From Candidatus Nanopelagicaceae bacterium (GTDB lineage Archaea; Asgardarchaeota; Lokiarchaeia; Sigyniarchaeales; SOKP01): a stretch of 40,425 nucleotides of DNA. Shown here piece by piece: positions 17,724 to 23,217 of the stretch. Position 1 is the first letter of the stretch. Each line of letters starts with the position of its first letter. The notes below the pieces were generated by a model. It was not told the DNA's origin, did not search any database, and saw only the letters and a list, made by a program, of their open reading frames with translations. The stretch lies in the NCBI GenBank assembly GCA_035530895.1, contig DATKTW010000010.1, forward strand, positions 1 through 40,425, given 5' to 3'. The translations under genes were made by a program, and so were the position numbers.

Positions 17724-18572
17724 TCACTTGAATAAGAAAAGCTGTAGAAGAAATTTAAATAAGTTTAATTCGTTTAATAGGGTAATATTTGAGATGAGGT
17801 AATCAAAGATATTTTCTTCGATAAAATAATGTAAAGTTACATAATAACCTTCTTCATGCTTTATCATCTCGGTGATTTTTTTAATAAGATTGATGATTTG
17901 TTTCTCTACTACAAGCATATCGCAGTTTTTAGGATTTATGTTGATAATGTTGATGCCAGAAGTGCGACTAAACGATAATTTACTTAATTCCGGATTATTT
18001 TGAACATATTGATGGTTCAAATAATTAGTAAACATGGATTCGATCTGAACATAAATATTCTCTTTTTTCTCGGTTGTAAAATGGCCTTCAATTACATTTA
18101 TGAGTAAATTTAAAATCTGTTGAAAGACGCCTAAAATATCAAAATATTCAGCAATCGCTGATACATCTTCAGCGATTAACCATTGGGAGTAGTACTCGTC
18201 GATAATATCTTTAAATGAACTGAAATGTTCGGTGTTGCCTTTCCATAAGCTTTTCCATTCATCTCTATTTTTAGAAACAAATTGTTCTAGGAAAGAATGC
18301 TTGATAATGTTAAGTCGAGCTTTTAACATGTTTGAACTGATGTTTTTTTCTGAAGTTGCAACAAACAATAAGTTAGCTGATTTTTCCTCCAAATAGGACC
18401 ATCTTAGGCCACCCATTTCGATGCTTTCTATCCCCTCTTTTAATTCATACGTTGTAAACTGGTTTAGGGCAGCTAATAAACCACTAATAAGATCTTCGTC
18501 TATTGGTAAATCCATATAGGGCTTGTATAATAGCGTTATACCACTTTCTGAGTCAAGAATCCAAATATTCAT
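17724..18572 (-). CDS. longin-like domain protein with helical C-terminal region
   Basis: N-terminal IWILD..SGITLLYK...DEDLISGLLAALNQF...IESIEMG...LLFV pattern typical of Asgard longin-like domains. Confidence 0.7.
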   Translation of the reverse strand: MNIWILDSESGITLLYKPYMDLPIDEDLISGLLAALNQFTTYELKEGIESIEMGGLRWSYLEEKSANLLFVATSEKNISSNMLKARLNIIKHSFLEQFVSKNRDEWKSLWKGNTEHFSSFKDIIDEYYSQWLIAEDVSAIAEYFDILGVFQQILNLLINVIEGHFTTEKKENIYVQIESMFTNYLNHQYVQNNPELSKLSFSRTSGINIININPKNCDMLVVEKQIINLIKKITEMIKHEEGYYVTLHYFIEENIFDYLISNITLLNELNLFKFLLQLFLFK

Positions 18573-19360: not shown

Positions 19361-19561
19361 TTATTTATCACGAAATAACATACTTTTAGCTAAATTTCGT
19401 TCTTCTTTACAATTGGGACATAACCAAGTAGCATCGTTTTTTTTTATCGAATTTATGCACATATCACAAATAGCCGTGTCGCAAATGCAGTAATAGCACC
19501 TATCTAGTTTTTCTTCACAACTTTTTCCGCATATATAACAATTTGGAGGATTTTTAGACAT
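19361..19561 (-). CDS. stand-alone C4C4-type RING finger protein (CNOT4/Not4-like spacing)
   Basis: C-x2-C-x13-C-x-C-x4-C-x2-C-x12-C-x2-C ending in CPNCK. Confidence 0.75.
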   Translation of the reverse strand: MSKNPPNCYICGKSCEEKLDRCYYCICDTAICDMCINSIKKNDATWLCPNCKEERNLAKSMLFRDK

Positions 19562-20154: not shown

Positions 20155-20316
20155 TTTGGTTCAAGATTTACAATTATTTTAATAATCTTCTTAAAGTAAG
20201 TTTGATTTTAAGTTTTTTTTATCCGAGAATCTAATAGCATTATCAAATATAATCAGTAGTCTTTTAAGAATCCATAATTTTATAAAATCAATAATAAGAA
20301 GACTCTCGTGAATATT

Positions 20317-20481
20317 ATGTCGGAATGGAAAAACAGAGTTAAAAAGCCAGTTTCAGACGAGTATTACTGTACGGGCTGAAATATTGTTGATGGATTTATA
20401 CAAATAATCAATTCATTAAAAAAAAAACGGAAAGTAAAAAGAGCAATAAAAATACAAATTAAAACAAATCTCGTAGATTAA
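20317..20481 (+). CDS. small ORF with in-frame TGA at codon 21 (candidate selenoprotein, CxxU): MSEWKNRVKKPVSDEYYCTG-U-NIVDGFIQIINSLKKKRKVKRAIKIQIKTNLVD
   Basis: ATG 20317, TGA 20377-20379, frame open to TAA 20479-20481; TATA-like TTTATAAA about 30 nt upstream; collinear with the ORF at 20692. Confidence 0.55.
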
Positions 20482-20529
20482 ATCAAAAATTTTAGGATTT
20501 TATCTAAAGTTCCGCAAGAACTCGAGATT
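20467..20529 (+). ncRNA. structured three-way-junction RNA element, copy 1
   Basis: P1 AATCTCG/CGAGATT; P2 TAGAT-T-AAATC/GATTT-T-ATCTA; P3 AGTTC-CGCAA-GAACT; covaries with copy 2. Confidence 0.7.
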
Positions 20530-20691
20530 CTACCAAAATTTAAAACAAAAGAACTCAAAGAAATTTTTATCAATAAATGAATTGGTTTTTCGAACAACAA
20601 TAGCCTTCTAGAACCTTATTTTTTATAAAACACACCCTTAATAGGCTTACTTTTTCTATAATATATACTATTGGAATAGTGATGAAAACTT

Positions 20692-20826
20692 ATGTCTGAA
20701 GAAGAAAACGAATTTGATTTCGGTTTTGATGATAATTGTTATTCAACCAGTTGATCGTTAATCAATATGTGGTACTTAAGAGCCTTAAAATCGCGTAACA
20801 ATGAAGAAAATAAAAAAACCCCTTAA
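20692..20826 (+). CDS. small ORF with in-frame TGA at codon 21 (candidate selenoprotein): MSEEENEFDFGFDDNCYSTS-U-SLINMWYLRALKSRNNEENKKTP
   Basis: ATG 20692, TGA 20752-20754, frame open to TAA 20824-20826; TATA-like TATAATATATA about 30 nt upstream; shares MSE, N6, D14, Y17, T19 and TGA21 with the 20317 ORF. Confidence 0.55.
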
Positions 20827-20843
20827 AAATTAAACAAAAATAA

Positions 20844-20908
20844 ATCTCGATGGTTAAGTCGTTAAATGGTAGGATTTGATTAATAAGGTCCTCGCAAGGA
20901 CTTGAGAT
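20844..20908 (+). ncRNA. structured three-way-junction RNA element, copy 2
   Basis: P1 ATCTCG/TGAGAT; P2 TGGTTAAGTC/GATTTGATTA; P3 GGTCC-TCGCAA-GGACT; six G.U pairs indicate the + strand. Confidence 0.7.
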
Positions 20909-21056
20909 AAAACAACTTTTTCTTCTGAATTAACTCATTAGACATACAAGAATTTTCGTTATTTAATTTTTATCGATATTATTATTCTTGATAAAAAAAT
21001 GATAGAAGGAGAAATCGAGGTTTACTTTCAACAATGATTTTTTATTTAAATAGACA

Positions 21057-22545: not shown

Positions 22546-23217
22546 TTACTTCGGTTTCTTCTGATAGGAACTACCTTTTACGGATTTAAAAATTACCGCT
22601 ATTATTGCACCCGCAACAAAACCACCTACATGGGCAAAATGAGCTGTTCCAGTTAACTCAAAAGAGAAAAATGCGTAAATCAATTCCGTAATAAAGTAGG
22701 TAATTATAAAGTAACTTGCAGTCACTTTGCGCATGTAAGTTCCGGTAGGGAGATAAAACTTATTATTGGGATAGAGTATCACATATACTGCCATAAGGCC
22801 AAAAATCGCTCCGGACGCTCCAAGTGAAGGGATATATTGTGCTATTGTTGCCCCCCAGAAAGGAATGAAGACCGTACTCCAAGCGTGAAGCATTGTCGCG
22901 AAAATACCGGAAGCGAAATATGTTATTAAATATAGAAGATGTCCCATTGCGTGTTCGCAATTATCCGTAATAACCAGAAAAAACCACATATTCATAATGA
23001 TGTGAACGAAATCTCCATGCATAAACATAGAAGTGAAAATAGTCCATAATTTCACTCCTGCAAAGAACTCTGCAGGGACAAAAGCTGCTTCAATATGCAT
23101 TTGACCAGAGGGATCCATCAATTGCCAAACGAAGAAACCTATATTCGCTATTAAAATTAAAACCGAAAAGTATTGCTTAAAAAAAGAAATTTTGTCGTCA
23201 GTTGCTTCTAATACCAT
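22546..23217 (-). CDS. rhomboid family intramembrane serine protease
   Basis: TSMFMHG..H..MNM, catalytic GASG and AHVGG. Confidence 0.95.
   Translation of the reverse strand: MVLEATDDKISFFKQYFSVLILIANIGFFVWQLMDPSGQMHIEAAFVPAEFFAGVKLWTIFTSMFMHGDFVHIIMNMWFFLVITDNCEHAMGHLLYLITYFASGIFATMLHAWSTVFIPFWGATIAQYIPSLGASGAIFGLMAVYVILYPNNKFYLPTGTYMRKVTASYFIITYFITELIYAFFSFELTGTAHFAHVGGFVAGAIIAVIFKSVKGSSYQKKPK

Follow-up and report, generated by a model that had tools for sequence, protein, structure and literature searches.

The closest described counterpart of the system reported here is the lokiSECIS, the selenocysteine insertion sequence (SECIS) element of Lokiarchaeia. As described in Mariotti 2016 (PMC4989117), it consists of AUGA, a 9-bp stem, an 11-nt loop starting with about five adenines, and GA (or AA) on the 3′ side of the stem. 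The last base of the loop is an ultraconserved G, usually with A before it (PMC4989117). The text of Huang 2024 gives the same lokiSECIS core, with variants (PMC11227280). The AUGA/GA core is invariant in all lokiSECIS of Mariotti 2016 (PMC4989117) and near-invariant in Huang 2024 (PMC11227280). Here we describe two very short tandem genes, A and B, in a 40,425-nt stretch of Lokiarchaeial DNA (contig DATKTW010000010.1, positions 1 to 40,425; hereafter the window). Each gene has a TGA at codon 21 and is followed by a conserved three-way-junction RNA. The feature is real, and comparison of homologues indicates that it is very probably a new selenoprotein gene pair with a SECIS variant devoid of the kink-turn core.

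Seven selenoprotein families are described in Asgard archaea, and they were found by homology to known families (PMC11227280, PMC13188914). The Asgard selenoproteomes were built by homology together with SECIS models requiring the AUGA/GA core (PMC11227280, PMC4989117). The isolate bin41, a close relative of the genome that carries the window, is presented as the metagenome-assembled genome with the largest archaeal selenoproteome (PMC13188914). Since these catalogues rely on known homology and on AUGA/GA models, a pair such as A and B would be invisible to both. A 44–57-residue orphan family and a core-less element are absent from the text of the Asgard surveys, apart from supplementary tables S3–S5 of PMC11227280, which this statement does not cover. 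Furthermore, a literature search on SECIS with a three-way junction, and on small Asgard selenoproteins, returned nothing on Asgard archaea by title and abstract.

VhuU is a very small archaeal selenoprotein (about 50 residues) with one selenocysteine (Sec), its own short gene and a 3′ SECIS, as proposed here for A and B. It is a subunit of the F420-non-reducing hydrogenase of Methanococcales and Lokiarchaeia, and corresponds to the C-terminus of the large [NiFe] hydrogenase subunit, split off as a separate protein. Unlike VhuU, A and B have the Cys upstream of Sec, do not match a hydrogenase family and do not adjoin hydrogenase genes. The SelW/Rdx family comprises CxxU redox selenoproteins of thioredoxin-like fold. 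With such proteins, A and B share a Cys a few residues before Sec and a predicted helix start. However, at 44–57 residues they are too short for the fold. Neither a thioredoxin-like domain nor the fixed two-residue spacing of CxxU/CxxC was found in them, and their Cys-Sec spacing is variable. The motif of VhuU is given as UxxC, and prokaryotic CxxU families are tabulated, in PMC13188914.

Two tandem genes with TGA at codon 21

The window is contig C10 of a genome of 2.64 Mb (87% complete, 32% GC). Two ATG codons, at 20317 (A) and 20692 (B), were read from the sequence, and their offset is 375 nt. Gene A (20317–20481, plus strand, as for all parts of the two units) comprises 54 codons and TAA. 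When TGA is read as Sec (U), its product is MSEWKNRVKKPVSDEYYCTGU NIVDGFIQIINSLKKKRK... The proposed Sec codon of gene A, which is conserved as TGA, lies at 20377–20379. It is followed by 33 codons up to TAA (20479–20481), and the final 14 nt of the gene overlap the SECIS-like RNA (RNA A, 20468–20528). Gene B (20692–20826) comprises 44 codons and TAA, and is read as MSEEENEFDFGFDDNCYSTSU SLINMWYLRALKSRNNEENKKTP. Its proposed Sec codon lies at 20752–20754, with 23 codons up to TAA (20824–20826), and the second SECIS-like RNA (RNA B) at 20844–20908. The ATCTCG at the start of the RNAs is located at 20468 and 20844, 89 nt (A) and 90 nt (B) past the final base of TGA. An initial annotation, made from the sequence alone, had proposed two units about 375 nt apart with this arrangement, and all of its coordinates were right. 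Its Sec contexts, CTGU and STSU, held for A. For B, the context is C-x4-U (CYSTSU) and not only SxxU.

A DNA search of 61 related genomes gave matches in 35, and 20 loci were fetched for alignment. In the unit-B set, two rows were cross-matches of unit A and were dropped, leaving 13 true copies. TGA was retained at 20/20 A loci and 13/13 B loci of the genus. When 161 genomes of the class were searched with a profile hidden Markov model of gene A, all matches at E ≤ 8.5e-6 had exactly one in-frame TGA. Neither TAA nor TAG, either of which the initial annotation would have taken as evidence against Sec, was seen at codon 21 in the homologues.

Exchange of Sec and Cys and its coupling to the RNA

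Four matches of family B (in genomes G122, G101, G127 and G148) have no in-frame stop, and all of them carry TGT (Cys) at the aligned position. Thus, the Cys codon that the initial annotation had suggested looking for does occur in B. TGT was the only replacement of TGA at this position (4/61); TGG, CGA or other codons were never observed. In G122, G101 and G127, whose peptides are closely similar, no RNA was detected 3′ of B, and the covariance model described below finds only the copy of gene A. Since the peptide of G148 is a different one, the peptide sequences suggest two independent changes from Sec to Cys. In contrast, the TGA-form B genes have the element 79–90 nt downstream in 57/57 cases (46 counted by script and 11 more read from match lists). 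One Cys-form B protein is also present in the public collection as a called gene (P0028).

For gene A, 76 TGA-form rows were tabulated, and the element starts 67–100 nt past TGA in 72 of them. Three pairs of rows represent the same locus twice (L017/L066, L019/L065 and L020/L068); hence, the number of distinct peptides is 73. In the remaining four rows, all from genus g27, B lies directly 3′ of A and one shared element follows B. A GAGGTG-like ribosome-binding site precedes B at these loci. Sharing of one SECIS by two genes is described for the Loki hdrA-vhuD pairs (Mariotti 2016, PMC4989117).

Structure and occurrence of the downstream RNA

Both RNAs fold into three helices. RNA A consists of P1 (AUCUCG/CGAGAU), P2 (10 bp, with the 11-nt loop AAAAAUUUUAG) and P3 (GUUC-CGCAA-GAAC). 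RNA B consists of P1 (AUCUC/GAGAU), P2 (10 bp, with the 12-nt loop GUUAAAUGGUAG) and P3 (GGUCCU-CGCA-AGGACU). Compared with dinucleotide shuffles, the minimum free energy (MFE) of the plus strand gave z-scores of −3.3 (A) and −3.6 (B), and only 1/200 (A) and 0/200 (B) shuffles folded equally well. On the minus strand, the z-scores were −1.6 and −0.1, respectively. In the founding set of 33 copies, 92.9% of the cells were paired, as against 55.2% in the best slid control, and compensatory changes were found in 10/21 pairs. In 34 copies from other species and genera, a set that was fitted to the model and is hence biased towards it, these values were 94.5%, 60.4% and 15/21. These results bear out the earlier proposal of a conserved three-way-junction RNA after each open reading frame (ORF).

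The P2 loop contains an AAA triplet in 79/79 copies. One to three other bases may precede it, and the loop of unit A starts with AAAAA. UAG closes the loop (U in 76/79, A in 79/79 and G in 79/79), and in the 33 founding copies these bases likewise vary little or not at all. P3 has a GNRA-like loop, with G in 78/79 copies. The junctions are 1–3 nt long, and the GC content of the element is 0.21–0.37.

A covariance model, R1, was built from the 33 homologous copies. In the host genome, R1 found only two copies, with 83.8 bits (20464–20532) and 77.3 bits (20840–20912); the next match had 23.8 bits. A blastn search of the host genome with the RNA likewise gave just the two copies. Across the class, 101/151 genomes had a match. 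Within the host's own family, these were 100 of the 126 other genomes, usually with one or two copies per genome, and no match was obtained in the 24 genomes of other families. Among the R1 matches listed and compared, all were at A/B loci. No Rfam family reached its gathering score anywhere in the window. Permissive Rfam matches at the locus, to rox2 and to families of C/D-box snoRNAs (E 0.6–9), were judged to be chance in A/T-rich sequence.

The complete genome G107 has a second locus (L134, G107:C1:189436-192202) with two more B-type genes, each with its own RNA element. A further element lies upstream at 190007–190079, and the genome has five elements in total.

The terminal codons of gene A (...N-L-x-D/E and stop; 20467–20481 in the window, and in many orthologues) are often also the 5′ strand of P1 and P2, as in AAT CTC ... 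GAT TAA. Since the end of the coding sequence lies inside this strand, the ribosome would need to melt the element before termination. The C-terminal NLK[DE] tail of gene A may be a by-product of the RNA sequence.

Comparison of the element with lokiSECIS

A pattern scan of the host genome (G000) detected six canonical lokiSECIS, at C27:6389(−), C119:4914(+), C156:17768(−), C168:13387(−), C172:1306(−) and C173:3199(−). Two of them lie 3′ of TGA-containing vhuD genes. In all six, GA/AA appears to be followed by a small hairpin and the structure to be closed by a lower stem, which gives a three-way layout (visible in the MFE fold of three elements and judged by eye in the other three). The wording "three-way" is absent from the text of PMC4989117.

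The new element shares with lokiSECIS its site in the 3′ untranslated region (UTR), directly after the coding sequence, and an upper stem of 9–10 bp. P2 has 10 bp, and its loop of 11–12 nt contains AAA. The apical loop thus has the size and the A-run of lokiSECIS, and it ends in an invariant G preceded by A. The small side hairpin and the closing lower stem are common to the new element and the lokiSECIS of this genome. In addition, one element may serve two adjacent cistrons in both systems.

However, covarying pairs were found where AUGA/GA would be expected (one pair was AU in 14, GC in 13 and GU in 4 copies), and a conserved GA is lacking on the 3′ side of the stem. The junctions are short, the sequence of the lower stem (AUCUC/GAGAU) hardly varies, and R1 recovers none of the six canonical lokiSECIS of the host. 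Because the defining AUGA/GA core is missing, we do not file the new element as a member of lokiSECIS. A hidden AUGA/GA or k-junction was sought in the 5′ junction, P1 and J23/P3; the candidate bases were covarying Watson-Crick pairs or were not conserved. From these comparisons, we read the element as a core-less variant of lokiSECIS that probably works like one. The initial annotation had spoken of selenoproteins decoded through a non-canonical 3′ element. This view is supported, although the element is less foreign than that wording implied, since the lokiSECIS loop and the three-way layout are kept.

As with the euryarchaeal SECIS, the element is in the 3′ UTR of an archaeal gene. Unlike it, the new element, in its covariation-supported fold, has neither the GAA_A asymmetric bulge nor the GC-rich stems (of 10 bp and 3 bp) that flank this bulge.

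Selenocysteine machinery of the host

Of the components that the initial annotation had asked for, SepSecS, an EFSec-like gene, a PSTK-like gene and SelD were found in the host, together with known selenoprotein genes. SepSecS scored 316 bits, above the cut-off. In-frame TGA codons occur in SelD (one) and in two VhuD genes (two per gene). In the related genome G106, a clear tRNA-Sec with a UCA anticodon scored 60 bits, which is over the Rfam cut-off, and its sequence was found in 38/41 congeners.

In the closest relatives (G004:C109:1337-1439, G027:C33:15811-15913, G002:C101:1305-1406 and others), tRNA-Sec was matched as two pieces about 22–27 nt apart. The pieces correspond to positions 1–45 and 40–75 of the query, as if an intron adjoins the anticodon loop. 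An intron would explain why the Rfam tRNA-Sec model missed these genes.

Proposed decoding mechanism and near-cognate readthrough

We consider it highly probable that A and B are paralogous, independently promoted genes for Sec micro-proteins of 54 and 44 residues, with UGA decoded via a lokiSECIS-variant RNA. The observations behind this reading are the conservation of TGA, the purifying selection in frame (given in the next section), the exchange of Sec and Cys coupled to loss of the RNA, the covariation of the RNA and the presence of the Sec machinery. In the proposed mechanism, each short mRNA, probably leaderless, would carry UGA at codon 21. This UGA would be decoded as Sec by the archaeal system of tRNA-Sec, PSTK, SepSecS and an EFSec-type factor. 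Decoding would be directed by the 61–65-nt three-way-junction RNA about 90 nt past UGA, directly after the stop codon or overlapping it. The RNA would be a lokiSECIS variant in which the upper stem, apical loop, side hairpin and lower stem are kept, and in which the kink-turn core has given way to Watson-Crick pairs and a tight junction. We infer that the RNA is the signal recruiting the Sec-decoding factor.

A number of results weigh against this reading. AUGA and GA/AA are replaced by covarying Watson-Crick pairs; because this core is missing, a SECIS function is deduced from co-occurrence and not from membership. tRNA-Sec was not found in the host assembly, which is 87% complete. The EFSec/SelB-like gene (G000 C178) scored 235.7 bits, just under the bacterial SelB cut-off of 242, and the full-length PSTK-like match scored 146 bits against a cut-off of 290. 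G148, which has TGT and a different peptide, retains the RNA. Its score of 42.9 bits is the second-lowest of 79 strong matches, and 3/33 conserved columns deviate, compared with a median of 1. However, at least one copy is worse and one of the changes may be compensatory, and we grade this element as merely low-scoring and not as decayed. A Cys form of family A was found neither in the 161 class genomes nor in a collection of 5.8 billion proteins. Finally, no match of A or B to Pfam or NCBIfam was over threshold; the best was DUF3088, with E 0.006, below the cut-off.

The absence of the canonical core and of a tRNA-Sec in the host assembly would also suit readthrough of UGA without Sec, with the downstream structure promoting the insertion of Trp, Cys or Arg by near-cognate decoding. 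The databases appear to point the same way. In the 5.8-billion-protein collection, 27 proteins match A, and 26 of them have W at the Sec position. This W means that the gene caller read TGA under code 4, which is a choice of software made on short contigs. In contrast, near-cognate decoding does not agree with Cys being the sole replacement of TGA, nor with the coincidence of this replacement with loss of the RNA in three of the four cases. Furthermore, the loop has the features of the host's own SECIS loops, the host possesses Sec machinery and further selenoprotein genes, and tRNA-Sec occurs in most congeners. Thus, we regard near-cognate readthrough as improbable.

If Sec decoding by a core-less SECIS is correct, it bears on what the Asgard Sec machinery recognises. 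Continuity with the eukaryotic SECIS has been argued mainly from the lokiSECIS core. To our knowledge, no SBP2 homologue has been found in archaea. A more specific form of the proposal, on which we are evenly divided, is that Asgard decoding reads the A-rich ...UAG loop on a three-way junction instead of AUGA/GA, and that this kink-turn-less SECIS serves the lineage-specific orphan pair A/B, which is perhaps a redox or metal couple. In that case, the lineage closest to eukaryotes would be able to dispense with the core. Core-less and canonical elements in one cell would be a natural comparison pair for binding and reporter work.

Coding evidence across the TGA

The ratio of non-synonymous to synonymous polymorphism (pN/pS) was calculated 3′ of TGA in the three frames. 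For the 17 codons of A (20 sequences), it was 0.47 in the ORF frame, and 1.09 and 1.28 in the other frames. For the 15 codons of B (13 sequences), the values were 0.19, and 1.24 and 1.55, respectively. The summed entropy at the first, second and third codon positions was 13.8/8.3/18.5 for A and 4.6/4.1/11.3 for B, the third positions being the most variable. Given the low pN/pS in frame and the variation at third positions, the sequence after TGA is translated, and its frame is that of the part preceding TGA. The purifying selection past TGA that had been predicted for both genes is therefore present. Insertions 5′ of TGA are multiples of three, and the peptides of both families can be aligned beyond TGA. 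The consensus of A is MSEWK...C-x(2-7)-U-[GNS]-[IM]-x-D-G-x-I...basic tail, and that of B is an acidic N-terminus...C-Y-x-T-S-U-S-L-I-x-M-W-Y-L-R-A-L-K.

The initial annotation had offered an alternative in which translation ends at TGA and yields 20-residue peptides (leader, RiPP-like, that is, resembling ribosomally synthesized and post-translationally modified peptides, or toxin-like), the downstream part being a separate structured RNA. Standard decoding does give 20-residue ORFs, and the remaining database protein among the 27, P0027, was called as ending at TGA. However, this alternative fits poorly with purifying selection that is seen after TGA in the ORF frame and is absent in the other two. 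The motif and the frame are kept past TGA in more than 100 genomes despite indels of 3n before it, and orthologues that have a Cys codon in place of TGA encode the same protein at full length, uninterrupted by a stop. Termination at TGA is therefore very unlikely.

A reading of the entire unit as a gene for a non-coding RNA, such as a C/D-box-like small RNA, with incidental ORFs, would agree with the strongly structured 3′ domain and with weak Rfam C/D-box matches at 20653–20752 (E 1.2–7.4, far below the gathering scores), but is scarcely credible in view of the codon periodicity of the substitutions, the conserved ATG, frame and stop, the lack of any Rfam family at threshold and the absence of C/D-like motifs from unit A. 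Equally hard to credit is a mobile element or virus in which TGA is an ordinary sense codon (Trp or Gly); a code with TGA as W was chosen by gene callers for the 26 short contigs with gene A, but each gene has one TGA, always at the same aligned position, the flanking genes are syntenic and stay open when read with the standard code, TGA apparently serves as the terminal stop in some A orthologues (L106, L108 and L139), in-frame TGA elsewhere in the genome was, for the families searched, confined to known selenoprotein genes, and neither a suppressor tRNA-Trp(UCA) nor many in-frame TGAs in neighbouring genes were seen.

C/D-box-like words (GTGATGA ... CTGA ... TGATGA) occur at 20680–20735, in the 5′ part of unit B, with the weak snoRNA matches mentioned above. 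They were judged to be chance, because unit A does not have them and because their position is inside a coding sequence.

In three genomes of genus g28 (L106:1150-1320(−), L108:1150-1320(−) and L139:416-586(+)), gene A ends with TGA where its relatives have TAA. This terminal TGA lies 33 codons past the Sec-TGA, near the RNA element, and readthrough would add only four residues. If it is a stop, two UGAs of one short mRNA are decoded differently.

Distribution and features of families A and B

The profile of family A matched 105/161 genomes of the class. Within the window's own family, 103 of the 134 other genomes were matched, and in five other families 1/26. With E 0.0018, the single match outside the family is weak, and both TAG and TAA occur in it. 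The profile of family B matched 65/135 genomes of the family, in four genera. An orphan micro-selenoprotein pair in most genomes of one large Lokiarchaeial family would be a gap in the selenoproteome catalogues. Gene callers drop these genes or use the wrong code, with W at the Sec position.

The spacing between Cys and Sec is 2, 3, 4 or 7 residues in A and 4 in B. Since it varies, a strict CxxU motif is not the rule. In both families, Sec stands at the start of a hydrophobic or amphipathic stretch, and a tail rich in Lys and Arg comes next. The N-terminal halves differ, that of A being basic and that of B strongly acidic. In hhalign, A and B were aligned U to U at 53% probability (E 1.3e-4), which suggests distant paralogues without proving it. 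By these features, A and B may work together, one with a basic and the other with an acidic N-terminal half. Our guess is that the products are Cys/Sec redox-active or metal-binding micro-proteins.

Putative promoters and terminators

A TATA-like box, TTTTATAAAA, was read at 20278–20287, about 34 nt 5′ of the ATG of gene A, and the A/T-rich block at this position is retained in aligned homologues. The spacing implies that the mRNA of A is leaderless or nearly so. For gene B, the putative box, TTTTTCTATAATATATA, lies at 20651–20667, about 32 nt 5′ of ATG, and the block is likewise retained in the alignment. Thus, a TATA-like box before each ATG, as had been noticed at the outset, is present. 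T5 runs are located 3′ of RNA A (20564–20568) and 3′ of RNA B (20917–20921). Judged from sequence alone, the A/T-rich boxes are presumably promoters and the T5 runs possible archaeal terminators. A search for sequencing runs listed no RNA run that contains the locus.

Neighbouring genes and a tRNA gene array

The neighbours of the pair include a divergent 89-residue coiled-coil protein (12/20 loci), a longin-like protein, a 165-residue protein and a convergent UDP-glucose dehydrogenase (11/20 loci). The chromosomal genes on either side show synteny between genera and stay open when read with the standard code, and they gave no functional lead. In the window, a longin-domain match (17724–18572, minus strand), a 66-residue Cys-rich protein (19361–19561, minus strand) and a rhomboid protease (22546–23217, minus strand) were found. 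The longin-domain match is weak (Fuz/Mon1-like, E 5e-4), and its gene is syntenic with the mini-genes in 10/20 loci. The Cys-rich protein has a weak RING-like match.

On a 2.8-kb contig of the host assembly (C135; L028:53-1494), 18 tRNA genes are arranged head to tail within about 1.45 kb. Of the 29 tRNAs that ARAGORN detected in the assembly, most belong to this array, which may represent a cluster of tRNA genes, a mobile or viral element, or contamination from binning.

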